This document shows positions 322 through 39,423 of a stretch of DNA of 45,171 nt, piece by piece; position 1 is the stretch's first letter; the number at the start of each line of letters is the position of its first letter. Below the pieces are notes generated by a model. That model made no database searches. It saw only the letters and a list, made by a program, of their open reading frames with translations, and had not been told where the DNA came from. Source of the DNA: Escherichia phage TR2; sequence record OP251154.1; one strand, 5' to 3'. The position numbers and the translations under genes were made by a program.

Positions 322-397
322 TGGTGTTCCGCGCTGGACTCGAACCAGCAACTAAGACTTAGGAGGTCTTTGCGTTATCCTGTTACGCCAGCAGAAC
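322..397 (-). tRNA. tRNA-Arg (anticodon CCU, reads AGG)
   Basis: Manual cloverleaf on minus strand: acceptor GTTCTGC/GCGGAAC (one G-U), D-stem GCGT/ACGC with GG in loop, anticodon stem AAGAC/GTCTT, loop CT-CCT-AA, T-arm GCTGG-TTCGAGT-CCAGC, 3' ACCA. Confidence 0.8.
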
Positions 398-4320: not shown

Positions 4321-4481
4321 TGCTATTACCATCTGAGATTAACTATTTTGATCTGGAAGTTATTAGTTCTTACAGCGGCAAGGGCTGGCCTTGCGGGGAA
4401 TGGTTCAACGAGGACTTGCTTGAATCTCACGAGATTATGCTTAAGGCGATTGAGAAGGCGAGAAATAGCACGAATTGCTAA
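4320..4481 (+). CDS. small hypothetical protein (53 aa)
   Basis: Manually translated MLLPSEINYFDLEV...ARNSTNC; ATG overlaps upstream stop; last codons are the operator sequence. Confidence 0.45.
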   Translation: MLLPSEINYFDLEVISSYSGKGWPCGEWFNEDLLESHEIMLKAIEKARNSTNC

Positions 4482-4508
4482 AGCCCTTCGGGGCTTTTGT
4501 TGTATAGT
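4466..4508 (+). promoter_or_regulatory. operator/-10 promoter cassette
   Basis: TAGCAcgaatTGCTA at 4466-4480, 22-nt spacer holding hairpin GCCCttcgGGGC plus T-run, TATAGT at 4503-4508, then CATCGAAACGAAA. Confidence 0.55.
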
Positions 4509-4540
4509 TTCCTCATCGAAACGAAAGAGAACAAGTAATC

Positions 4541-14579: not shown

Positions 14580-15062
14580 ATGTGTGAAATCGACAAGCGA
14601 ACTATTAACGGCAATAACGGAACCGTGCGCACAAAAGACAAAAAGCAACGCAAACGACCATCAGGCTACTACGTATTGAAAGATGAGGTAAAGGCTGGGC
14701 TACGTGCTCGCCTGGAGATGGTTCTTGATTTCTACGGTACAAAGGCGAACATCGCAAAGCAGTTAAATGTGTCCAACCAAGCTGTATCGGAATGGTTTAA
14801 CCGCGGTATGATTTCGGCTCGAGGGGCTCAGCGAGCACATAATGCGTACAAGCGAAATAAGGAGGGATTTCGAGCTACATTCTGCCGACCAGACCTGCAA
14901 TTCGACGGAAACGGAAAACCGCTAACACTTCGATGCAAGAAGCGCCATATGCTTCGCGTAGTTACCGATGCAGAACTAGCAACAAAGCCACCCTGTCGAC
15001 CATGGCGAAAGAATAAGGCCGCTAACGAGGCAGCGCGAAAAGCTAAAGAGCAAGGGAAATAG
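14580..15062 (+). CDS. putative HTH DNA-binding protein (Cro/YdaS-like)
   Basis: HTH-like segment KANIAKQLNVSNQAVSEWFNRG; basic C-terminal half; first gene of plus operon. Confidence 0.5.
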   Translation: MCEIDKRTINGNNGTVRTKDKKQRKRPSGYYVLKDEVKAGLRARLEMVLDFYGTKANIAKQLNVSNQAVSEWFNRGMISARGAQRAHNAYKRNKEGFRATFCRPDLQFDGNGKPLTLRCKKRHMLRVVTDAELATKPPCRPWRKNKAANEAARKAKEQGK

Positions 15063-15102: not shown

Positions 15103-15128
15103 GCCTTTATTGTTTATGGAGGGTGTAT

Positions 15129-15653
15129 ATGAAAGTTAATGATTTCGTTTATGTTGACGATGAATTTAAATTAAGATGGAAGAGTCGAGGTGCCGAACTC
15201 TTTAAAACAGATAGGTCATCAAAGATCTGGAATAGTAGGTTTGCAGGCAAGAAATGTGGATACATTAGGGATGACGGTTATCTTTCTTTTGAGTTCAAAG
15301 GACGAGCATACAGAAATCACAGGGTGATATGGGAGATTGTAACTGGTAATGAAATAGGTGATAACATGGAGATCGATCATATAGATCATAATACAACAAA
15401 CAACAATATTGAAAACCTTAGAGTTGTTGACAGGAAAGAGAATTGCAAAAATCAACCCATGATGCCCCACAACTCAAGTGGATTCACAGGTGTTTACTGG
15501 TGGTCAACGAGAAACAAATGGAGAGCCCGCATTGAATGTGATGGCAAGGTGAAAACAAAATCATTTGAAGACTTTAATGATGCTGTCGAGTGGAGAAAAG
15601 AAATGAACATAAATCTTGGCTTTCACAAGAATCATGGGGATAAGAAAAAATGA
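15129..15653 (+). CDS. HNH homing endonuclease with AP2 domain
   Basis: HNH motif IDHIDHN...IENLRVV and AP2-like SGFTGVYW...W.A.I; start set at ATG 15129 after GGAGGG. Confidence 0.8.
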   Translation: MKVNDFVYVDDEFKLRWKSRGAELFKTDRSSKIWNSRFAGKKCGYIRDDGYLSFEFKGRAYRNHRVIWEIVTGNEIGDNMEIDHIDHNTTNNNIENLRVVDRKENCKNQPMMPHNSSGFTGVYWWSTRNKWRARIECDGKVKTKSFEDFNDAVEWRKEMNINLGFHKNHGDKKK

Positions 15654-19324: not shown

Positions 19325-19367
19325 ATGATAACCCACCAGTTAATTTTGTCTTTAGCAATTAGTGCTA
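19325..19367 (-). promoter_or_regulatory. operator/-10 promoter cassette
   Basis: Plus 19353-19367 TAGCAattagTGCTA, 22-nt spacer, TATCAT (plus 19325-19330), leader CATTGAAACGA. Confidence 0.55.
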
Positions 19368-19844
19368 TTTACCATGATTTTCATGGAAGCCGTGCTCTAT
19401 TTCAGCCTTGATCCTTGCTGCTTTTGCGTCATCAATATCAGAAAAGCATCCCAGGTGATAATCGCGGCCGTTTACTCTAATATTTGATACGTACTTCGAT
19501 AACCTTTCAACCCATGAAACACCAATAACTCCAGTTTTGTTATTGAATCTAATTGATTGATTCATTGCATTCCCTTGTTTTGTGACAAGCCTTAGGTTTT
19601 CTATTCTGTTATCTGACCTGTCGTGATTTATGTGATCAATAAACATTGCATCATCAATATCACCATTAATCATCTCCCACACAATCCTATGCGACTTGTA
19701 ATACTTACCATCAAACCTAACGTTTATGTAACCATTTGATGAATTTACATGGCCTGCAACCATGCCTTTCCTTGCTCTAGATCCGAAGTTTTTCGCCCAA
19801 ACTAGGTTGCCTGAATCGTATATAAAAACATCATTCCATCCCAT
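19365..19844 (-). CDS. HNH homing endonuclease with AP2 domain
   Basis: IDHINHDRSDNRIENLRLV plus AP2-like NKTGVIGVSW. Confidence 0.8.
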   Translation of the reverse strand: MGWNDVFIYDSGNLVWAKNFGSRARKGMVAGHVNSSNGYINVRFDGKYYKSHRIVWEMINGDIDDAMFIDHINHDRSDNRIENLRLVTKQGNAMNQSIRFNNKTGVIGVSWVERLSKYVSNIRVNGRDYHLGCFSDIDDAKAARIKAEIEHGFHENHGK

Positions 19845-19921: not shown

Positions 19922-20890
19922 TTTTATTAGCTCCTGGTACTGTTTAGATACCCAATCAGGGATTATTAACTCTTGCTCCGCTATTCCACCAGAGTATCCA
20001 GGCCATTTGTCAGTTTGCTTGCAGTTCTTGTAAACAGATAGCGCTTCGCAATATTGGAGCCTACCAATCCTTAAGTGCTCATCACTCAATGTGTACATCA
20101 TTGGAAGGTATGGCTCCTCTTTTTCCTGAGCCAGCAATCTAACCTTAACTTTTCTTTTCTCATTGAATGCCCTTACAAACAAATCTCTTTGTAAACTCAT
20201 TTTCAGTAAGTACATATGTTTACAGGCTAATCTTCCAAACTCATCTGGAGATGCGCTTGAGGTTGTTTTAAAGTCGGTAATGTAAACAACGCCATCAACA
20301 ACATCCACATGGTCAAGTCGAACCTTAACGCCGCATCCGAGAATCTCACCAAAGATTGATAACTCTTTCTGCGCGGTTGGTGAATTAATAACCGCATCGT
20401 ATGCCGGAATGTTGGTAAGAACCTCGCGCATTGAGATTACCTTGTCGTAATCCTTTGCGCTAACCAGTTCCTTGCCACTAATTAACGCCCCAGCGCTCTC
20501 CTGCTGCTCAATTAGCCATTTAACAGGCCAATCCTCACCAGACTTATACATCATCTCTACTAGCTCGTTATAGTCCTTCCCTGAGGTGCCAGAAACTCCA
20601 ACTTTTTTAAGCGCCGCCGATAAAGCAGTTTGGCTAGTAATCAATCCTTCCACTTCATCAAAGTCTGTGGCTCGCATGCAAGTGGAATCGAACACTTCAC
20701 GCTCAAGCATCATGCAGTGACTGAGAGTGCCAAACTTTAGTGCTGCGCTTGAGTTATTGCGCTGCTTAAATTTCCATTTAGCTGGAGAGGTTGCCAGAAT
20801 CTCAGCCAGTGAAGATCCAGAGATGTGATCTTGTTCTTCGTGATAAGCCTCGTTGCTAAGTTCGTCATTTGTATATACGGTGAATGTCAT
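19919..20890 (-). CDS. PD-(D/E)XK exonuclease (RecE/Cas4-like)
   Basis: ITDFKT D..K motif and C-terminal Cys cluster; partnered with ERF and SSB. Confidence 0.6.
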   Translation of the reverse strand: MTFTVYTNDELSNEAYHEEQDHISGSSLAEILATSPAKWKFKQRNNSSAALKFGTLSHCMMLEREVFDSTCMRATDFDEVEGLITSQTALSAALKKVGVSGTSGKDYNELVEMMYKSGEDWPVKWLIEQQESAGALISGKELVSAKDYDKVISMREVLTNIPAYDAVINSPTAQKELSIFGEILGCGVKVRLDHVDVVDGVVYITDFKTTSSASPDEFGRLACKHMYLLKMSLQRDLFVRAFNEKRKVKVRLLAQEKEEPYLPMMYTLSDEHLRIGRLQYCEALSVYKNCKQTDKWPGYSGGIAEQELIIPDWVSKQYQELIK

Positions 20891-20931: not shown

Positions 20932-21426
20932 TCAAAATAAACCAAGTTGGAATCGTGCACCAACTTCCTCAATTAGCTTCCTAGCTTCCTTCTTCTGCCG
21001 CTTTCTTTCGGTCATTAGCTTGCTGCCTACTTTTCCGATCTGTTCTGAGTCATTGCATAATTCCGAAACCGCTTTTGTTGCCGCATTGAAATCACCAGTT
21101 AGTGCAATGGCTTTCACTTTACTAATTACATCCAAATCCTTAACTGCTTCTTCTAGTTGTTCCCAACGCTTAATGATCGCATAACGCATTTGAGCATTGT
21201 ATCCAGAAACCAGCGTTATTGTCAGGTCTTTTGGTAGATTGTAAATCTTCAATTTCTTGCCGTTTGGTCCATCATTAACAAAACTCAAAAATGAGTTCTG
21301 CTCTAAATTCAATGACTTAAGCATATTCTCTAAATCCCTGATGACGTTATTATGTCTCTTCCCTGTTAGTTCAGCAATCTCTCGGCTGCTCATTGTTTCA
21401 ACTTTCAGTTCTGTAATCTCTTTCAT
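20932..21426 (-). CDS. Rha-family phage regulatory protein
   Basis: SSREIAELTGKRHNNVIRDLENM matches the Rha N-terminal signature; start set at second Met with AAGGTGA SD. Confidence 0.55.
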   Translation of the reverse strand: MKEITELKVETMSSREIAELTGKRHNNVIRDLENMLKSLNLEQNSFLSFVNDGPNGKKLKIYNLPKDLTITLVSGYNAQMRYAIIKRWEQLEEAVKDLDVISKVKAIALTGDFNAATKAVSELCNDSEQIGKVGSKLMTERKRQKKEARKLIEEVGARFQLGLF

Positions 21427-21427
21427 C

Positions 21428-21625
21428 TCAGTCACCTTTAACCTTAACAATCTTAATAGCTTTCAAATCTTCTTCAGTGAAGTACCCGGTCAGACGTTCC
21501 TTGGCTTCTTCCTTTGTTTCAAATCTGTCTGCTTCAGATTTATGGACTGTATATCCAGCGGGTCCGCCAAAGTAGCAATCTCCGAATAGTGCGTTGTTTT
21601 TCTCTTTAATAATGAAATATGGCAT
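21428..21625 (-). CDS. hypothetical protein (65 aa)
   Basis: ORF track. Confidence 0.4.
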   Translation of the reverse strand: MPYFIIKEKNNALFGDCYFGGPAGYTVHKSEADRFETKEEAKERLTGYFTEEDLKAIKIVKVKGD

Positions 21626-21629
21626 ACGT

Positions 21630-22037
21630 TTATCCTTTGATGATTTTCACGTGTTCTGATGTTGTCTTTTCTATCCTTGCGCCTGTTTGCTCCCATTGTT
21701 TACCGTATGATAATTCGCAAAACCTAACAGCCATATCATGTGTAAGGAATATAGCCACGGGTGAATACGTTGGTAGTATAACCGTATGAGCATTCAATTT
21801 ATCAAACTTCTTCATCTCTATCTCTCTATGGTTGCGTGCTTTCGATGTGGTAATGATGCCGCATGCTTGCCACTCAGTCCAATTGGTTTCGCCAATCGTT
21901 GAATCAAGTATACGCGTATAATTCTGTAACCACGTGTAGATATGTGCATTGGTTACGTTTTTCACCACTTCAGCCCAGCCATAGCTCAATGTAAAAGGTG
22001 CGTATATCGTGTATACCGATTTTAGCGGAGGGTGCAT
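21630..22037 (-). CDS. hypothetical protein (135 aa); start uncertain
   Basis: ORF track; no SD before the annotated ATG, so it may be shorter. Confidence 0.35.
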   Translation of the reverse strand: MHPPLKSVYTIYAPFTLSYGWAEVVKNVTNAHIYTWLQNYTRILDSTIGETNWTEWQACGIITTSKARNHREIEMKKFDKLNAHTVILPTYSPVAIFLTHDMAVRFCELSYGKQWEQTGARIEKTTSEHVKIIKG

Positions 22038-22110
22038 GGGTATGGGTGGCGATCAATACTGTATAAAATCACATGATATAAAAATTATAACCGGAACACT
22101 CCAAAACAGT

Positions 22111-22277
22111 AGTTACATGATATACACAGTAATATATATAATAATAATAATAAAAGTAAAAGGTTGATATATATAGATATTTTAATGTAACTATGGCGTA
22201 ACTTTGCGTAACTGGGCGTATACGATTTCCCGCGGATGCATATGGTATACATCGAGTTACATCGGTTACGTGTAACC
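22111..22277. repeat. noncoding module B (homolog of module A at 3305..3466)
   Basis: TTACATGA, (AT)4(ATA)4, GATATATATAGATATTTT, iterons, ACATCG, palindrome GGTTAC-GT-GTAACC at 22264-22277. Confidence 0.7.
22196..22222. promoter_or_regulatory. three phased iterons GCGTAAC/GCGTAAC/GCGTATA
   Basis: Starts at 22196, 22206, 22216 (exact 10-bp spacing). Confidence 0.5.
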
Positions 22278-22304
22278 ATGATTTATGGGTAGACTTGAGA
22301 TAAA

Positions 22305-22347
22305 TAGCACGATTTGCTAAAGACAAGCTGCAATATTTGGGCATATT
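22305..22347 (+). promoter_or_regulatory. operator/-10 promoter cassette (weak -10)
   Basis: TAGCAcgattTGCTA at 22305-22319, 22-nt spacer, CATATT at 22342-22347. Confidence 0.45.
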
Positions 22348-22445
22348 GTGCGCATGACGGCAATGGTGCTGCCATCCAACCTAAATTTCAGGCTGGGAAC
22401 CAAAGTGATGGCTCAGATTTGAGCCATGAAAAAACCAGAAGAGAG

Positions 22446-22589
22446 ATGAAAATGAACCTAACTCTACTAAATGAAGATGTAAAAATGAACAGTTATCAGT
22501 TTTTGAATGAAGTTATCAACCCAGCGAGGTTAGTTGCCGGTGAATCTGATGTTCGGCACAATGACTTTGTTGAGAGGATAGAGGATTAG
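22446..22589 (+). CDS. small hypothetical protein (47 aa)
   Basis: Internal Met of ORF 22314..22589 after purine-rich SD; the 5' part of that ORF overlaps the promoter. Confidence 0.3.
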   Translation: MKMNLTLLNEDVKMNSYQFLNEVINPARLVAGESDVRHNDFVERIED

Positions 22590-22673
22590 CTTGAGGGGTT
22601 TGAGTTTGACTACGAAAGTTTCGTAATCAAAAGTGAGGGGAGAGGGGGTTATAGAAAGTCAATCAACTCACCA

Positions 22674-23129
22674 GTGCTTAATATGGAACAGATGCTTCTT
22701 GTTGGAATGCGTGAGTCAAAGTCTGTTCGCCGTGCGGTTCTTAATAAGCTTAAAGAGATGCAGTCCACCATCAACAAACAAACGGAAGTAATCAGCCAGA
22801 TGGTGAGTATTGATGAGCTAAAAGAAGCGCGCGTGATGCTTGGTGTGGCTAATGCGCAGAACGCTCACCTTAGCCAGCGAATCGTTGCGGAGCAGCGAAT
22901 CAATGAAATCCTCCTTATGGATAAGAACATTGACGAGAAGCTTGACCTTCTCGCTTGTGAAGCTCGGCAGTCTTGGGTATCACGTTCCGATGAAATGGAA
23001 GCAAGGTTTAGGTATGAAGCACAATGTTTCGCTCTTAAAGAGAAGACTGACGCACTGGCAGGATTGATCGAGAATAAACTTGGTATCGACATTAAGCCGT
23101 TGCTGGAAAGAAGCAGCACGAATAGCTAA
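22674..23129 (+). CDS. hypothetical coiled-coil protein (151 aa); start uncertain
   Basis: ORF track (GTG 22674 or ATG 22683); C-terminal codons SSTNS-stop are the next operator. Confidence 0.5.
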   Translation: MLNMEQMLLVGMRESKSVRRAVLNKLKEMQSTINKQTEVISQMVSIDELKEARVMLGVANAQNAHLSQRIVAEQRINEILLMDKNIDEKLDLLACEARQSWVSRSDEMEARFRYEAQCFALKEKTDALAGLIENKLGIDIKPLLERSSTNS

Positions 23130-23156
23130 AGACAAATTTCATTGGTGATGTACTAT
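23114..23156 (+). promoter_or_regulatory. operator/-10 promoter cassette
   Basis: CAGCAcgaatAGCTA at 23114-23128, 22-nt spacer, TACTAT at 23151-23156. Confidence 0.5.
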
Positions 23157-23185
23157 TTACAGGCAAACTCAAAAGGAGCAACAAG

Positions 23186-23446
23186 ATGAATAAGTCAGAA
23201 TTTATAGATAAGGTTAAGTTGGCAGGTTTGAAATTCAAAGTTGTTAGCGTTAGAGTCAATAAAGACAGGAACTACGGCCTCGAACAACAGTACTTCTCAC
23301 TTTGGCTGACTGGTTCAAATAGCTGCGACGAATCCTTAACTATGAGTGTTGACTGCATGCCACTACTTTTAAGATTCAAGTCACTGGAAAAGGCAATCAA
23401 TGAGAAGGATAAATATAACAGGTGGTTGAATAGCATTAATTGCTAA
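23186..23446 (+). CDS. hypothetical protein (86 aa)
   Basis: ORF track; C-terminal NSINC-stop encoded by the next operator. Confidence 0.5.
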   Translation: MNKSEFIDKVKLAGLKFKVVSVRVNKDRNYGLEQQYFSLWLTGSNSCDESLTMSVDCMPLLLRFKSLEKAINEKDKYNRWLNSINC

Positions 23447-23473
23447 AGACAAAACTCACAGTTGAGGTATGAT
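23431..23473 (+). promoter_or_regulatory. operator/-10 promoter cassette
   Basis: TAGCAttaatTGCTA at 23431-23445, 22-nt spacer, TATGAT at 23468-23473, then CATCGAAACGAAA. Confidence 0.55.
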
Positions 23474-23514
23474 TACTCCATCGAAACGAAATGCACATTC
23501 TAAGGAATAAGAAA

Positions 23515-23757
23515 ATGACTAACTTAATCAAACTTTCAATCATCGCCGCAGCAGCAATCATGATGGTGGGTTGCTCTTCTGGTCCTCGTCCTGACGGTTG
23601 GTGTGCAACGCAAGCAAACGGAGTATGCGTGGCTAAATGGAAAGGTGGAGTGGTTCTACCGGCTGGTGAAGTTGATGTGCGCTACGACGGCATTAAGATG
23701 AATGGTGGCGGTTACAGCGGGTCTGTTGCTGACCACGGCTCTAAGGAGTGGAAATAA
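23515..23757 (+). CDS. small lipoprotein (Cor/Llp-like superinfection-exclusion candidate)
   Basis: Signal peptide with lipobox (IMMVGCSS); ~80 aa; start set at ATG 23515 after AAGGA; overlaps start of next gene. Confidence 0.55.
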
Positions 23758-24713
23758 TGGGTCAAGGTATCTACATAAACCTTAATGATGGAAGGCCGGC
23801 AATGGAGATAACATCAGGTTTGAGAATTCCAAATGTGACAGGTTCAGTTCCAACGTCAGGTTTCAACTCAGCAAATGGAGGTTTAACTTTCGGTCTTACA
23901 CAAACTAGTGGATCAACTGCATTCATGCTTCCAATTAAAGCGGTTGATGTAGTTGTTTTTGGCGTAGTGCCTGAGGTTTATTACCTAAATGGATTCCAGC
24001 GTGTATCAGACTCACAGGGAAGGATAAATGTTAGTAACTTCAACGGTGCTAGAGGAAGGTTGATAAACTTCTCAGGTAACTGCCTTGAGATAACGGGTGC
24101 TGCAAGTGGGCAGGGAATTTTGGTTGCAAACTCAACTGACTTTGTTTCCATAACAACAAACTCAAGGATACTTACCGCTCAATATGTAGGGACTGTTACA
24201 GTAAATGGTAGTTACAAACTTCCAGTTACTGGAGTTCCTTTTGGGAGGTGGAGTGACCCGAATGTAACTGTTGAATTTGATGGGGACAGCATACTTTGCA
24301 GAAGCAACTCATATACTGGAATTGATAATGTTGGCGCATCTGTAACTATAGATCTCGTTATATTCAATAATACAGCTCCAGTTGGCGGACCTGGAATAAC
24401 TATAGTAAACCCAGCTGGTCAGGTTGTTTTCTCGACAGTTAAGCGTCCATTTGTTCTTGGTGGATTTCTACAGTTAACAAATTCATTCCAGTCAATAGGT
24501 GGTGGGTACTTCCCAATACTTAGAACCGGAGCATACACTCGGGTAACTGGTGGCTATAACAACCTCCGGTATAAAGGTGTCGTTATGTCTGGTGGCTCAG
24601 TTAGGAGTGAGTTCGGAAGCGTTATTGGTAACTACTCAACGAAAACAGGAGCACGGTTCCCATTCAACACAAATATAGCAATGTCACTCCCATACCTTCC
24701 AAACATGTATTAA
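23757..24713 (+). CDS. candidate receptor-binding protein (beta-rich, 318 aa)
   Basis: G/S/T/N/V-rich composition typical of fibre or RBP domains; coupled to the lipoprotein, convergent with gpJ-like gene; start at ATG 23757 after AAGGAG. Confidence 0.45.
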   Translation: MGQGIYINLNDGRPAMEITSGLRIPNVTGSVPTSGFNSANGGLTFGLTQTSGSTAFMLPIKAVDVVVFGVVPEVYYLNGFQRVSDSQGRINVSNFNGARGRLINFSGNCLEITGAASGQGILVANSTDFVSITTNSRILTAQYVGTVTVNGSYKLPVTGVPFGRWSDPNVTVEFDGDSILCRSNSYTGIDNVGASVTIDLVIFNNTAPVGGPGITIVNPAGQVVFSTVKRPFVLGGFLQLTNSFQSIGGGYFPILRTGAYTRVTGGYNNLRYKGVVMSGGSVRSEFGSVIGNYSTKTGARFPFNTNIAMSLPYLPNMY

Positions 24714-24744
24714 AGATAAAGCCCCTTTCGGGGCTTTTATTTTA
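24714..24744. terminator. bidirectional rho-independent terminator
   Basis: A-run, GCCCC-tttc-GGGGC, T-run; between the candidate RBP and gpJ-like gene. Confidence 0.7.
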
Positions 24745-27700
24745 GAACGTACCTACAACAACCCTCCCCCCATTCGCCAGGTTAACAGTGATCCCGTTTC
24801 CGTTAATCTGAACCGTGTTATTAGTGCCGTTGAATGCAAAGTTACCACTGTTGGCGTACAGACTACCCCTTACGGTTGCGTTACTAAACTCGGCGCTACC
24901 TGACTTATCAATCGACCATCCCTGAGATCCAGCAACGTAATTGTTAGACTGAATCCGGTTTCCAATCTTCGCGTTAGTGATTGAACCATCCTGGATTACT
25001 GCGCTCTGGATGAACACCTGATTATTCTCAACCACGAAAGGCAGTGACCACTGACCGGAACCTGAGCTAATGCCGTTACTGATTGCGAACCTGTTAGCAT
25101 CAAAGATAACCTGACTGCGAACATTGCCACCAGAACCGGCTAGCTCCATGCTCATTCCAGAACTGTATTCAACACCATTGTATTTAAGTCCAAGTTTAAC
25201 CCCGTACTGCGCACCAATTGAATCAGCGGTAACGTAGGTGTCCAGCTTCTCATTTAGAGCGGCCTCATTATCACCAAGCCTTGCTGATAATGCAGTGTCA
25301 GCAGTGGTTCTTGCTTGAGTTTCTTCCGCAAGTGCAACGTCAATCCTTGTAAGAGATGCAACAACCTCATCGTCTATCTGTGCTTTAAGCTGCGTAAGAG
25401 CCTCTACACGAGCCTTTTTCTCATCGGCGATAAGATTCACTGCCTGAACAAATTCAGCCTTCCTCTTGCCGTTTTCCTTTGTCATTCTTCGAACGTCACC
25501 TTCATTCGCGAGGGCGTTCTCAATAATTGATTCAGCTTGCGCCTGTATAGCAGAGTTCTTTTCTATGGCATTCTGTTGGAGATACTTGAACCCCTCAGAG
25601 TTCTCTATATCAACCTTTATTTCGCCAATGATAGATTCCACATTATCACTTGCCATTCCACGCACAAAGTCAGTCCACGGAGAGGCGTTACCAATCTTGT
25701 CGATTAGTCGCGCCCTGTACCAGATGACCTTACCTGCAGGTAATGTAGTGTGCCAATACTCGTAGCTCGGGTAAGGAACTAGTGTTAACAAGCTGGCATT
25801 CTCTGGAGAGTAAGTGCCATCACCATTGTCGGCTACTTGCTGCAATTCAGTATATGACGTATCGGCCGAGTTCTCAGGGAAGCCCCACTTAACCCTAATA
25901 CCAAATACTTCATCATCTGAAGCCGTGATTACAGTTGGTGCAGACGGTGTTCCAATTTTACCTGTAAGGCTAGCCGAAGCAATGTCAGACCATGCAGAAA
26001 CGTTTTCAGTATCAGAAACAGCCCTTACGCGAACCTGATAAATTCCAGCATAGATACCTTCAATATCAATCTCTGTATTCGCTGTGCGCGGTACGTTAAT
26101 CCAGTTTCCATTCTCCTTTCTCCATTGGACTGTGTAGGTCTTAGCGTATTGAACCTTATCCCAGGTGATTATCATTGTTTCAACTGATAAACCCTGCACA
26201 ACCTTGCTGTAGCTGCTCACCTGAACATTCTCTGGCGCCAGTAATGTATCTGGTTCAACGATTGACGTTGGTCTGTCCTGAATGTTTACGCCGTAATCAA
26301 TCTCGTCGTATTTGTTCGGGTCGTACTCAACTGCCGTAATCGTGTAGCCAAAAGCATCATCTCCATCGCTATCAGCTTTTTGAATCCCGGTAACAACATA
26401 CTGCTGAAGCGCCAGATTTTCCTTATCAATCGCGAACACAGTATCCGGCTGAGGAGTAAAGCTAAAAGCTGTGTTAAGTTGCAGCGTCATTCCATCTTCA
26501 GATACAGATGCAATTGTCCTGTACTCAGGCATGCCGTCAGGCTTGTTAATTAGAATCCTGTCGCCAGCAGCAGCATCAATTTTAAACGGCACAAAAACCT
26601 GTAACCCACTCACTGACTCGATGCGACCAGAGAGGTTGAGGGTGTAGTTGCTAGACCAGGCCTGGTCATTAACCGCAATCACCTCACCAATCATAGGTAT
26701 CATCCCTTCCAGACCTGTAGTGAAGCTGACTGTCTCACTGCGGAGGTTTGTCTTTAACAGCCATCGACCACGGCGGTTTGCTTCACTCCTGCGAGTGCAC
26801 CCAATGGCTGTCAGGTCAACCGGGTTGTAACCGAAACGCCTTGTTGCCTCCAGTTCGAATACTGGCTCAACATCCTGTTGGTATGAGTTTTCAACGTCAT
26901 CAAACTGAACGTTAGCGACTGTGTACAGTGACTTGTCGCTACCAAACGTGCGGTTAAACAGACCATCAACAACGTTGTCGTTGGTAAAGACGTATGAAGG
27001 CTGGCGTGGCTTATCGACAACAATCCCTATCTGCTCGCCATCATAAAAGGTTAACCCACGGAAGATAGAGCAAATGTCACGGATTACCTGATACGCTTCA
27101 ACCTTCTGCTGAATAACAACGTCGCACAGGTATCTAGGCTCCATCCCACCCTTGCCATCTGGAACCATCTGGTCACAGAACTGCGCAGCTTCATACAGAC
27201 CCCACTTATCAATCGTGATACCAAGCTCACGCTGGTCCAGACCGTAACGCTGATTCGTTACCAGATCGTAAAGAACCCAGGCTGGGTTGTTGGAGTAAGC
27301 CATCTTAAATGTTCCGTTCCAGGTTCCGCTATAAGTCCTTGTCTCTGGGTTGTAGTTGGTCGGAACGCGAATCAACTTCCACCTCTTCTTGATTGAAATC
27401 GTCGGGATTCCGTTAGGGAAGAGGTCAGAACTAAACTCAACGTAAACCAGCGCTGTAAGTGGGTAGCGGAACTTGGCGTCGATTACTTCCTGATAGGTCG
27501 TAATTTGCATGTCGTTAACCAGCGTCGAACTTTCTGAATCTGCCGTGATCTTACGAACCCTCACCAACGCACTCGAGAACTCAGCAGGAAGATTAACCCT
27601 AATGCTCCTGTCGTATCCGCTGGTTGTCTTGCCATTAGCCACGCCTCGAGTGTATTCAGTGTATGTAGCGCCATCAACGGACAGGTCAATCGCATACTCG

Positions 27701-28128
27701 CAAGATGTTCCGTTCAGGTCGCCATTGTTCTCTTGTTTAATTAATCGAGGCCAGAACAGCTTAACCCTGATTGCTGATAGCTGAGTGTTGTTAACGGCAA
27801 TGATGTAAGGTGTTGAGTTGGATATTTCCCTGTTAACCTGCACCTCTGAGTTCGCGCCCTCTAGCCCGGCAATGTAGTCCTGACTCTGTGTGCCTGGGCG
27901 AAATTCTGCCGTTACACCCTCGTAGTTGTATGTTCCATTCTGATTCTGAACCGGAACGTCAGCGAGATACAGATCCTTTAGTGAGAACGAATTATCGACC
28001 TCGCCATCAGAAACGGCCAGTAAAACCTTAACCTTGTTTACAGATATTAGGTTGTCAGGTTGCTCTACAGGCTGGTGCTGCTTCGGTTGCCCGCCCTTAC
28101 TGCCGTAAATTTTAATGTCCTGCGCCAT
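24742..28128 (-). CDS. central tail fibre / host-specificity protein (lambda gpJ-like)
   Basis: 1128 aa; last gene of the gpM-L-K-I-J syntenic block. Confidence 0.8.
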   Translation of the reverse strand: MAQDIKIYGSKGGQPKQHQPVEQPDNLISVNKVKVLLAVSDGEVDNSFSLKDLYLADVPVQNQNGTYNYEGVTAEFRPGTQSQDYIAGLEGANSEVQVNREISNSTPYIIAVNNTQLSAIRVKLFWPRLIKQENNGDLNGTSCEYAIDLSVDGATYTEYTRGVANGKTTSGYDRSIRVNLPAEFSSALVRVRKITADSESSTLVNDMQITTYQEVIDAKFRYPLTALVYVEFSSDLFPNGIPTISIKKRWKLIRVPTNYNPETRTYSGTWNGTFKMAYSNNPAWVLYDLVTNQRYGLDQRELGITIDKWGLYEAAQFCDQMVPDGKGGMEPRYLCDVVIQQKVEAYQVIRDICSIFRGLTFYDGEQIGIVVDKPRQPSYVFTNDNVVDGLFNRTFGSDKSLYTVANVQFDDVENSYQQDVEPVFELEATRRFGYNPVDLTAIGCTRRSEANRRGRWLLKTNLRSETVSFTTGLEGMIPMIGEVIAVNDQAWSSNYTLNLSGRIESVSGLQVFVPFKIDAAAGDRILINKPDGMPEYRTIASVSEDGMTLQLNTAFSFTPQPDTVFAIDKENLALQQYVVTGIQKADSDGDDAFGYTITAVEYDPNKYDEIDYGVNIQDRPTSIVEPDTLLAPENVQVSSYSKVVQGLSVETMIITWDKVQYAKTYTVQWRKENGNWINVPRTANTEIDIEGIYAGIYQVRVRAVSDTENVSAWSDIASASLTGKIGTPSAPTVITASDDEVFGIRVKWGFPENSADTSYTELQQVADNGDGTYSPENASLLTLVPYPSYEYWHTTLPAGKVIWYRARLIDKIGNASPWTDFVRGMASDNVESIIGEIKVDIENSEGFKYLQQNAIEKNSAIQAQAESIIENALANEGDVRRMTKENGKRKAEFVQAVNLIADEKKARVEALTQLKAQIDDEVVASLTRIDVALAEETQARTTADTALSARLGDNEAALNEKLDTYVTADSIGAQYGVKLGLKYNGVEYSSGMSMELAGSGGNVRSQVIFDANRFAISNGISSGSGQWSLPFVVENNQVFIQSAVIQDGSITNAKIGNRIQSNNYVAGSQGWSIDKSGSAEFSNATVRGSLYANSGNFAFNGTNNTVQINGNGITVNLANGGRVVVGTF

Positions 28129-37810: not shown

Positions 37811-38419
37811 TTATAGCACTAAACAATCGCCTTCGTGAACCCCATTGGCGTTTCCGTACTCGCCGAATATTTCTTTACACCAACTGTCGTAACACTCCTT
37901 AGCCTCTTCAATTGTGTCAAACCTTTTAGCCATCCTTACATCTCCGCAATCCTTTTGTATCTGGGCTTTCCACTTCACCCTTGATTTATCGTAGCTAACA
38001 CCTTTAAATCCACTCTTGTTCCTTTTGTATAGGCTCGTATTCATCATGTTCTCACTTCGAGTAACAACCCTTAGGTTTTCCACCCTATTGTTTAATGAGT
38101 TACCATCAATGTGATCTATCTCACCTGTCGGCCAACTCCTGTGATGATAAAACCACTTTAACTTATGCATTGAAACGTGAAACTTCTTCCCGGAAACTTT
38201 AATACATAGCTTCCACATCTTACTTTCTGGGCATGTTGGGTTTGGAGTGAATTCACCTCCAGCAACCTTTCCGGCGTACCTTGAATTCCATACATTTGTA
38301 AACCTATCATTTCCCGGCTTTACTTTCCATGTCATAACGGGACTTTCAGAATCTGATTCAAGTCTTGATGTTAGCTCTTCGTGAGTTAGTAGTTCTTCAA
38401 TTTTCATTTTCGCCTCCAT
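37811..38419 (-). CDS. HNH homing endonuclease with AP2 domain
   Basis: IDHIDGNSLNNRVENLRVV plus AP2-like KSGFKGVSY...W.A.I. Confidence 0.8.
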   Translation of the reverse strand: MEAKMKIEELLTHEELTSRLESDSESPVMTWKVKPGNDRFTNVWNSRYAGKVAGGEFTPNPTCPESKMWKLCIKVSGKKFHVSMHKLKWFYHHRSWPTGEIDHIDGNSLNNRVENLRVVTRSENMMNTSLYKRNKSGFKGVSYDKSRVKWKAQIQKDCGDVRMAKRFDTIEEAKECYDSWCKEIFGEYGNANGVHEGDCLVL

Positions 38420-38478: not shown

Positions 38479-39423
38479 TTAGGCAAAGGTAATTCCTTTG
38501 ATAGCTGCCACTGTAAGAGGGCGATATAAAATCAAACCTGTCGCCTTAGAGGTTACAGGGAAGCGGAAGTGAAGATCACGAGGCTGACCAGGTAAAACGT
38601 TTGTAACTTCCGGAATCTCGATGCTCATGTTGAGCGGATCCTTTTCAAACGCCAGCGCAGCTTTACCGCCAGCACCATCGTAGTTATCCAGGACCTGCAT
38701 AAAGCGCAGGGTTACACCTGGGTTGTTACGAGTAAACAACTCGCCATAGCTCAGGGTTGTATTATCAACAAGGCGCTGCATTACACGGCGAGCGGAAGCT
38801 GGCAGCAGAATGTCAGTTACATGGTGGAAGCCCTGTGTGCTGGTTTCTACAGCATCAATCATTGCGGTAACGTCGTTAACCGCGTTAATTGGATTGCTCC
38901 AGTTTGGAGTTGCAACAACGTTGTTGATGTTCGGCTGGTTAAATACGCTTACGATGCCGTGAGGTGCAGAGCCAGACCATACCAGTTTATCAAGCAGGTT
39001 GTCGTGAGCTTCAAAAGCCAAAGCCTGTTTGCGAGCGGACAGTGACTGACCAGTAGCAGCGCCAACTTTAATCTCATCAACTGAGATCATAAACGCATTA
39101 CCGAAGCGGAATACTTTACCCTGCTTCTCGGTCATGAAAGCATCAACCATCGGCAGGTCGTCAGAGTAATCAGCGATGATCTGAGCAATACCAACACCAT
39201 CGAACTCATTGTATTCGAAGTATTTCGCGTGACCAGGGATTTCGTTGGTTACTGGGAAGATGTTGACAACTGAGTTGTCTGCGTATTCTTTTTCGTAAGC
39301 GCGATTCAGTGATGCGGTTAACTGCTTAACGGTCCAGATACCAGCAGCATCAGCCTTATCTACGCCCATTTGCTCTAGGTGAGCGGTGATTTTTGCTTGT
39401 TCTGCATCAAATTTAATGGCCAT
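38479..39423 (-). CDS. major capsid protein
   Basis: 314 aa in canonical position after portal, protease/scaffold and decoration candidates. Confidence 0.7.
   Translation of the reverse strand: MAIKFDAEQAKITAHLEQMGVDKADAAGIWTVKQLTASLNRAYEKEYADNSVVNIFPVTNEIPGHAKYFEYNEFDGVGIAQIIADYSDDLPMVDAFMTEKQGKVFRFGNAFMISVDEIKVGAATGQSLSARKQALAFEAHDNLLDKLVWSGSAPHGIVSVFNQPNINNVVATPNWSNPINAVNDVTAMIDAVETSTQGFHHVTDILLPASARRVMQRLVDNTTLSYGELFTRNNPGVTLRFMQVLDNYDGAGGKAALAFEKDPLNMSIEIPEVTNVLPGQPRDLHFRFPVTSKATGLILYRPLTVAAIKGITFA

Follow-up and report, generated by a model that had tools for sequence, protein, structure and literature searches.

What does a short repeat do that recurs, always in the same orientation, ahead of a run of small phage genes, and does it place each of these genes under its own control? 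The question was raised by the interval 22,305-23,473 of a 45-kb stretch of DNA (45,171 nucleotides, nt) from Escherichia phage TR2, sequence record OP251154.1. This stretch, hereafter the window, is the genome of a T1-like siphovirus of the family Drexlerviridae, subfamily Braunvirinae; all positions given below refer to it. A first-pass annotation had described three small plus-strand genes in this interval (22446..22589, 22674..23129, and 23186..23446), each preceded by a private promoter cassette, and had proposed that they were independently regulated accessory functions, such as host takeover or anti-defence. Our analysis favors a different account, to which we assign a probability of roughly 60%: judged from sequence, the cassettes would be class II promoters of the marbox type, i.e., built on a binding site for the host regulators MarA, SoxS, and Rob, and they head modules that can be exchanged between related phages.

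The cassettes and their genome-wide family

The presence of a repeated cassette was confirmed, at a frequency far beyond chance. The exact 11-mer GCTAAAGACAA was found on the plus strand at 22316, 23125, and 23442, and, when up to one mismatch was allowed, it occurred seven times in the window versus 1.0 expected, a count reached by none of 100 shuffled sequences. In each local copy, a spacer of exactly 18 nt separated a 20-nt box from a -10-like hexamer downstream. In cassette 1 (22304..22354, plus strand), the box ATAGCACGATTTGCTAAAGA (22304-22323) was followed by CATATT (22342-22347) and a predicted start at A 22354. Cassette 2 (23113..23163, plus strand) was composed of the box GCAGCACGAATAGCTAAAGA (23113-23132), the hexamer TACTAT (23151-23156), and a predicted start at about 23161-23163, and cassette 3 (23430..23490, plus strand) of the box ATAGCATTAATTGCTAAAGA (23430-23449), the hexamer TATGAT (23468-23473), a predicted start at A 23480, and a conserved leader, CCATCGAAACGAAA, at 23478-23491. 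The E-values obtained with an nhmmer profile, built from six cassette copies, were 5e-15, 1.5e-13, and 2e-16 for cassettes 1, 2, and 3, respectively. The hexamer located 16-17 nt upstream of the -10 was AAGACA or AAAGAC, which corresponds to a weak or absent -35, and cassette 3 alone passed a sigma-70 scan (9-of-12). The spacers of cassettes 2 and 3 were able to form hairpins of only 3-4 bp.

The arrangement of these cassettes relative to the genes differed from that described in the first-pass annotation. Cassette 1 precedes a gene split by an amber codon (gene A), cassette 2 precedes gene B (23186..23446), and cassette 3 precedes a lipoprotein gene (23515..23757) followed by a DUF6453 gene. 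No cassette or sigma-70 promoter was found in the interval 22590-22673, upstream of the supposed second gene, by the profile, a marbox scan, or a sigma-70 scan. Counted from the start of the box, the ATG was located at +143 for cassette 1, which has a long leader, at +74 for cassette 2, and at +86 for cassette 3, the real start being at 23515. The boxes also belong to the preceding reading frames: that of cassette 2 encodes the final codons of gene A (..STNS) and its TAA stop (23127-23129), and that of cassette 3 encodes the final codons of gene B (..NSINC) and its TAA stop. The unusually high promoter density noted in the first-pass annotation was borne out, with three cassettes for four genes versus about 19 cassettes for about 70 genes in the whole genome.

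The leader following cassette 1, about 92 nt in length, contained two hairpins, GGCAatggtgcTGCC (22361-22375) and ATGGCTCAgattTGAGCCAT (22408-22427). In relatives with different gene A leaders, a hairpin with an A/T-rich loop was likewise observed just 5' of the ribosome-binding site; there are thus hints that the leader hairpin upstream of gene A is a conserved RNA feature.

In the whole window, the profile detected about 16 copies (6 strong and about 10 weaker), and a consensus scan brought the total to about 19. All of these were oriented in the same direction as the downstream gene, whose ATG was usually located at +61 to +85 from the start of the box; examples, all on the minus strand, were found at 1135, 2052, 8526, 12076, 19368, 19922, and 44650. 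The consensus could be written as AAATAGCAC(GAA/TTT/TAA)TTG(C/T)TAAA, 18 nt, a TATAAT-like hexamer, and C-A at the predicted start; the A of this pair, at position +1, was conserved, a G at -14 was frequent, and the leader CATCGAAACGA was often present 3' of the cassette. The spacing of 18 nt between box and -10 was observed in 15 of the 18 window boxes with a -10, as well as in 15 boxes of T1 and 16 boxes of TLS. In 11 of the 19 cassettes, the upstream reading frame ended within the box, at a TAG (box positions 2-4) or a TAA (positions 15-17), and in two others a TAA abutted the box. Many proteins therefore carry tails encoded by the box (..STNS*, ..NSTNC*, ..NSTNR*).

In several cassettes, the 18-nt spacer itself formed a GC-rich hairpin, in some cases accompanied by a T-run, as in AAAGCCCcttcGGGGCTTTTGTTG and ACCACCgaaaGGTGGTATTTTTG. 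Such cassettes were located at 4465-4510 (plus strand) and at 38479-38430, 9736-9690, and 2052-2005 (minus strand), and look like a terminator nested within the next promoter. The hairpins of T1 and TLS frequently flanked the -10 instead.

The repeat itself has already been published. In phage TLS, a 21-nt sequence, aaATAGCACnnnTTGnTAAAA, is present in 18 intergenic copies oriented along transcription, about 76 nt before start codons, and it also occurs in T1, Rtp, and Rogue1 (PMC11447400). The same authors found just three sigma-70 promoters in TLS, suggested a role of the repeat as a stoperator, an enhancer, or an UP element, and listed its function among the open questions for T1-like phages. 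Matches to this 21-mer were found at 22302-22322 (AAATAGCACGATTTGCTAAAG), 23111-23131 (AAGCAGCACGAATAGCTAAAG), and 23428-23448 (GAATAGCATTAATTGCTAAAG); in all three the final base was G instead of A, and copies 2 and 3 had one or two more deviations. The three cassettes are thus members of the Drexlerviridae 21-nt repeat (TLS DR) family, whose copies, about 18-21 per genome, share their sequence, their orientation along transcription, and their position before start codons. The published account ends at the 21-mer, whereas the element described here extends to the box, the 18-nt spacing, the -10, the C-A start, and the leader. No transcription-start map of any Drexlerviridae phage was found in the literature, and the KanT1 paper is silent on promoters.

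Likeness of the box to the host marbox

The classical consensus of the marbox bound by MarA, SoxS, and Rob is AYNGCACNNWNNRYYAAAYN (PMC2527123), and a form derived from chromatin immunoprecipitation reads gcannwwntgnnaaa (PMC12052159). With up to one mismatch, the classical consensus was matched 13 times in the window versus 1.16 expected (0 of 100 shuffles reached 13). Exact matches to the second form were equally numerous (13 versus 1.15 expected), and again no shuffle reached the count. Marbox matches were also observed in T1 and TLS, which belong to two other subfamilies (21 each), and in the closest relative, Escherichia phage CY1_Cui-2023, hereafter CY1 (11), with none in lambda. The box of cassette 1 had a single mismatch to AYNGCACNNWNNRYYAAAYN and matched gcannwwntgnnaaa exactly. 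Moreover, the variable positions of the TLS consensus, which was derived independently, coincided with the degenerate marbox positions 8-10 and 14.

The geometry of the cassettes pointed in the same direction. In a class II promoter, the box is in the forward orientation, overlaps the -35, and is centered between -36 and -55 (PMC12052159). The paradigm in the cryo-electron microscopy complexes of both Rob and SoxS is micF (PMC9178005, PMC9638938), at which Rob contacts -47G and -45A (PMC9178005). When measured in E. coli, the micF promoter was composed of ACAGCACTGAATGTCAAAAC, 18 nt, and TAGAAT, and the G and A of the cassette GCAC were located at -47 and -45, i.e., at the positions contacted by Rob in micF. 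Among other host promoters, the marbox of the mar operon, ATGCCACGTTTTGCTAAATC, had CACG..TTGCTAAA in common with the phage box, and at fumC a perfect box was separated from the -10 by about 17 nt; at the inaA promoter, no box was found by the filter used. The E. coli fumC marbox (ATGGCACGAAAGACCAAACA) was located directly 3' of the fumA terminator hairpin, a layout similar to that of the phage cassettes.

Overall, the cassettes resemble micF-type class II promoters in having a 20-bp asymmetric forward box, a poor -35, 18 nt to the -10, and GCAC at -47 to -44. They differ in context, as micF-type promoters serve single chromosomal stress genes, whereas the cassettes number about 20 per genome and head nearly every transcription unit of a virulent phage. 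Box positions 0-3 (AATA) and 11-12 (TT) are also more conserved in the phage than in the host consensus.

To identify a possible phage-encoded binder, we searched the six-frame open reading frames (ORFs) of at least 40 amino acids (aa) in the window, T1, and TLS with phmmer; no homolog of MarA or Rob was detected (best E = 0.87), and a binder of this type would therefore have to be supplied by the host. A Pfam scan of 10 window ORFs without assigned function revealed HNH domains and, as the sole helix-turn-helix (HTH), a sub-threshold Cro-like match in the gene at 14580-15062.

We propose that each cassette would act as a sigma-70 promoter without a usable -35, dependent on an activator in the class II manner. 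The 20-nt box would be a forward marbox/soxbox/robbox located at about -50 to -31, with GCAC at -47 to -44 and (C/T)TAAA over the -35 position, as in micF. A monomer of a host AraC/XylS-type regulator would bind the box and bring RNA polymerase to the -10, often aided by the G at -14, with Rob as the constitutive candidate and MarA and SoxS acting under stress; the three promoters of the locus would then be co-regulated with about 16 other cassettes. The parts of this proposal are not equally secure. Binding of the boxes by MarA, SoxS, or Rob in vitro is what we would confidently predict, while the odds that these regulators measurably drive phage transcription in vivo seem even to us. The broader proposition, that most transcription units of Drexlerviridae phages (about 20 per genome) are under class II marbox promoters and that these phages borrow, and possibly titrate, MarA, SoxS, and Rob, could in our judgment equally go either way. 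No paper linking the marbox to T1-like phages was found in the literature outside subscription, and this reading of the repeat, which sequence and geometry strongly favor, appears to be new.

Modules headed by the cassettes

The locus is a co-directional array, which runs rightward from a divergent intergenic region (about 22040-22300) to a bidirectional intrinsic terminator (24718..24737). It is flanked by leftward recombination genes on one side and, on the other side, by a convergent gpJ-like tail-tip gene (24742-28128, minus strand). The terminator acts on both strands, serving the plus-strand array and the gpJ gene; it was the only strong one found downstream of the three cassettes, with no plus-strand terminator between 22300 and 24718. 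Because internal terminators are lacking on this strand, nested transcripts that all end at 24718-24737 would be expected, and expression would add up towards the last operon. Since, in addition, one box is common to all cassettes, the independent regulation proposed in the first-pass annotation was not supported, and the three cassettes are probably regulated in common.

The other half of that proposal, i.e., the accessory and modular character of the genes, was supported by their variable presence in relatives. The region 22000-23800 was 96.8% identical to CY1 and, piecewise, 81-88% identical to IME253, ACG-M12, and others. We compared the locus in seven relatives (CY1, Ec-G8, ESCO41, P818, ACG-M12, PCEc3, and IME253). 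Genes A and B were both present in CY1; only gene A was present in Ec-G8, ESCO41, and P818, and only gene B in ACG-M12 and PCEc3, while IME253 exhibited gene A followed by an unrelated ORF of 89 aa. In these relatives, every gene was found behind its own box. BLAST homology to ACG-M12 and PCEc3 was lost at 22274-22278 and returned at 23115, and homology to Ec-G8, ESCO41, and P818 ended at 23133-23157 and returned at 23429; in the latter three phages, one cassette (20-46 nt, box included) aligned to both cassettes 2 and 3 of the window. The breakpoints were thus located at boxes or no more than about 26-30 nt away. As units A and B are missing from relatives with breakpoints near the boxes, they are swappable modules bounded by cassettes. 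At the level of modules, the notion of a private promoter is therefore correct, with one cassette each for the whole of gene A, for gene B, and for the receptor-binding operon. That the locus combines modules with promoters in this way is, to our mind, close to certain.

This architecture is reminiscent of the PeSL cassettes of T4-type phages and the morons of lambdoid phages, in which an accessory gene with its own promoter is variably present and the junctions fall in repeated regulatory sequence. PeSL mobile cassettes were reportedly described by Arbiol et al. in 2010, and morons by Juhala/Hendrix in 2000. The likeness to PeSL cassettes extends to gene B, homologs of which are located behind an early promoter of the T4 type in the hyperplastic frd region of T4-like phages. 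The promoter sequence and logic differ, and units A and B have no closing terminator, whereas morons and PeSL cassettes are expected to carry their own. Around cassette 1, identity to CY1 was about 80% over 22280-22375 (the cassette and early leader) and more than 99% from 22376 on; this jump suggests a recent recombination boundary just 3' of cassette 1.

The first two genes of the first-pass annotation are halves of one nonsense-disrupted gene. One reading frame runs through 22446..22589 and 22674..23129, broken only by the TAG at 22587..22589, and the two together form gene A, a Rha/anti-repressor-like gene (22440..23129, plus strand; 227 codons from the ATG at 22440, or 225 from the ATG at 22446). 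In CY1, the same 684 nt are annotated as one coding sequence of 227 aa (WDS61338), with GAG at the amber codon. The two coding sequences differ at three positions, and a single G-to-T change creates the TAG; IME253 also has Glu at this position. The amber codon lies within a Rha-like N-terminal domain. When Glu was restored, residues 13-221 of the protein matched phrog_8235, annotated as "anti-repressor", with E = 6.6e-75. Gene A gave no Pfam Phage_pRha match at threshold and no match in a PDB sequence search. No good ribosome-binding site was found before its downstream in-frame starts, and the phage has no suppressor tRNA able to read the amber codon. Gene A is probably dead in a non-suppressing host, and its TAG may be a real mutation or a sequencing error. 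The only tRNA gene of the phage was a tRNA-Arg (anticodon CCT; 322-397, minus strand), which was also the sole Rfam match in the whole window.

A second Rha-family gene was identified at 20932-21450 on the minus strand (Pfam Phage_pRha, E = 3.5e-17), and its product had weak similarity to that of gene A (22% identity). The annotation of CY1 has no counterpart of this gene and lists only two small hypothetical genes between the exonuclease gene and the locus; homology between the window and CY1 was measured from 21500 rightwards only, and 21626-21811 gave no match.

Gene B (23186..23446, plus strand; ribosome-binding site AAGGAG) encodes a protein of 86 aa belonging to phrog_4423, a family of unknown function. 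Its homologs occurred in 343 phage records, mostly of T4-like phages, where they are located in the frd region, and also of rV5-like phages and Klebsiella Webervirus. Homologs from similar contigs ended in ..NSTNC*, unlike those of T4-like phages. An AlphaFold2 (AF2) model was confident (pLDDT 87.9), with the order helix, three strands, helix (alpha-beta3-alpha), and fold comparison with this model gave no significant match. A double-stranded RNA-binding domain has a similar order of elements, but the match probability was 0.12-0.2 and this candidate was retained as a lead only. A search for homologous proteins returned one protein with gene B as the query and 21 with a T4-like homolog, none of them informative.

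Gene B moves between phage families and takes on the promoter type of each. In the T4-like phage wV7, the homolog (601-861) had no box and was located in the frd region among early promoters of the T4 type, with one such promoter (GTTTAC / TACTAT) 3' of it, ahead of the next gene. In Klebsiella phage vB_KpnS_Call, a distant member of the Drexlerviridae, gene B homologs were found behind marbox-type cassettes at positions 249 and 1194.

The third module is an operon of two genes. The lipoprotein gene (23515..23757, plus strand) encodes 80 aa with the lipobox MVGC and matched PF24052 (Phage_lipoprotein) with E = 6.4e-39; its stop overlaps the start of the DUF6453 gene (TAATG). The latter gene (23757..24713, plus strand; 318 aa; PF20051, E = 5e-131) is rtp44-like, and its counterpart in ACG-M12 is annotated as "Similar to RTP rtp44", while the counterpart of the lipoprotein in phage Ec-G8 is annotated as "Cor superinfection exclusion protein". 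The pair is convergent with the gpJ-like gene, whose product is 1128 aa long, as in a locus of the rtp44/rtp45 type. In the BASEL study, a locus downstream of gpJ composed of a lipoprotein and a putative receptor-binding protein was assigned to receptor binding and superinfection exclusion (PMC8594841), and a later screen agrees. The lipoprotein is presumed to be a superinfection-exclusion partner similar to rtp45/Cor, and the DUF6453 protein is a candidate receptor-binding protein. A search of NCBIfam with gene A, gene B, the lipoprotein, the DUF6453 protein, and the HTH regulator gave no matches.

At the left end of the locus, the AT-rich divergent region (22038-22303) contained many GTAAC/GTTAC motifs in both orientations, for example GCGTAACT (twice), ATGTAACTA / TAGTTACAT, and GGTTACGTGTAACC, as well as an (ATA)n run. 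The region may have a regulatory role or serve as an origin. No leftward-pointing marbox cassette was found within it, so the leftward genes need another promoter.

Elsewhere in the window, three HNH endonuclease genes were located directly behind their own cassettes: 15123-15653 (plus strand; box at 15059), 19365-19844 (minus strand; box at 19922), and 37811-38419 (minus strand; box at 38479). One of them has an AP2 domain. All three resemble free-standing mobile genes that were inserted as units bounded by cassettes; one such unit lies between the genes for capsid and tail.

Competing explanations and implications

Several points weigh against marbox-type promoters. The boxes of cassettes 2 and 3 each have two mismatches to the 20-nt consensus AYNGCACNNWNNRYYAAAYN, and box position 19 is mostly A or G instead of Y, although micF also has A there. 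Many cassettes combine a good -10 with a G at -14 and may fire without an activator. Rob is reported to be largely inactive without inducers, yet T1-like phages grow well in plain broth. The conserved phage HTH protein encoded at 14580-15062 is a possible true binder. Finally, in an RB-TnSeq/Dub-seq study of 255 phages, 64 of them T1-like (10.64898/2026.04.02.716166), rob is unmentioned in the main text, and the accessible part of the supplement gives rob and marA for Bas47 only. To the extent covered by that part, loss of rob alone therefore seems not to give strong resistance to T1-like phages. Rob alone is thus unlikely to be essential; the result could still be reconciled with marbox-type promoters if MarA, SoxS, and Rob substitute for one another or if the effect is a quantitative one.

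The box might instead be the site of a phage DNA-binding protein (an activator, a repressor, or a stoperator binder), with the likeness to the marbox coincidental or a case of mimicry. Stoperator and enhancer roles were proposed by the TLS authors (PMC11447400), the commonest box variant carries the inverted repeat TAGCA-N5-TGCTA, and two candidates can be named, a Rha-type protein and the Cro-like HTH regulator (14580-15062), which has a weak P22_Cro match and is conserved as a "transcriptional regulator" in the window, TLS (gp57), and T1 (ST23). The symmetry is not conserved, since box position 14 can be C, T, or A (TTGATAA and TTGTTAA copies), and a palindromic operator TAGCA-N5-TGCTA was accordingly rejected as the constraint. 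The conserved pattern is asymmetric and fits two independent marbox definitions, and the fixed 18-nt distance to the -10, as in micF, is not something that a road-block site would need. The stoperators of mycobacteriophage L5, with which the TLS authors compared their repeat, are likewise short, asymmetric, intergenic, and oriented along transcription; they block elongation as repressor sites and have no set relation to a -10, unlike the phage cassettes. These phages are virulent and encode no AraC-like protein, and in the window no repressor module was identified, only the weak Cro-like HTH. We regard a phage-encoded binder as rather unlikely. It is more doubtful still that the box is read by RNA polymerase itself, as an UP-like element or a substitute for the -35, which would make the cassettes strong, constitutive, factor-free promoters. 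A likeness to UP elements was suggested in the TLS paper (PMC11447400), the -10 hexamers are good, the frequent G at -14 points to extended -10 character, and, as far as the accessible part of the source goes, rob is not a hit when T1-like phages are used in transposon screens. Against this, GCAC is invariant and the box is not A/T-rich as UP elements are; AAAGAC or AAAACn, found where a -35 would be expected, is a poor hexamer; and TTGCTA, considered as a -35, was rejected because its distance of 22 nt from the -10 is too great. The detailed match to the marbox would also be left unexplained.

Very little probability remains for three separate small genes with private promoters and independently regulated functions in host takeover or anti-defence, as originally described. 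Three cassettes do occur within 1.2 kb, genes A and B are dispensable and variably present, and gene B is shared with the early regions of T4-like phages. Two of the genes, however, are halves of one amber-disrupted gene, with no cassette before 22674; the third cassette serves the receptor-binding operon; and box and geometry are common to the cassettes of the whole genome, with no insulating terminators. We give hardly any credence to the repeats being mere recombination linkers or remnants of module exchange without a transcriptional role. The positions of indel breakpoints in relatives, at boxes or within about 26-30 nt, would fit such linkers, but these would not account for the strict orientation with transcription, nor for the fixed 18 nt to the -10, the conserved C-A start, and the 61-85 nt to start codons, all of which are found in three subfamilies.

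Whatever protein reads the box, one short sequence has three roles at this locus: it is part of a promoter, it ends the upstream gene with a stop codon, and it forms the junction at which accessory genes beside the receptor-binding operon are gained and lost; moreover, the gene model of the locus is corrected from two genes to one amber-disrupted gene. Marbox-type promoters would, if confirmed, explain a published repeat whose function in T1-like phages the TLS authors explicitly left open (PMC11447400), and reading the box in this way brings the question within reach of a few standard experiments. The whole transcription program of a virulent phage would then be wired to the multidrug-resistance and stress regulon of its host, and bile salts, salicylate, oxidants, and antibiotics would be coupled to phage expression. 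A replicating phage could also soak up MarA, SoxS, and Rob with its thousands of high-affinity sites. Such a dependence would matter for combining phage therapy with antibiotics or bile exposure, for controlling T1 contamination, and for designing compact regulated promoters.

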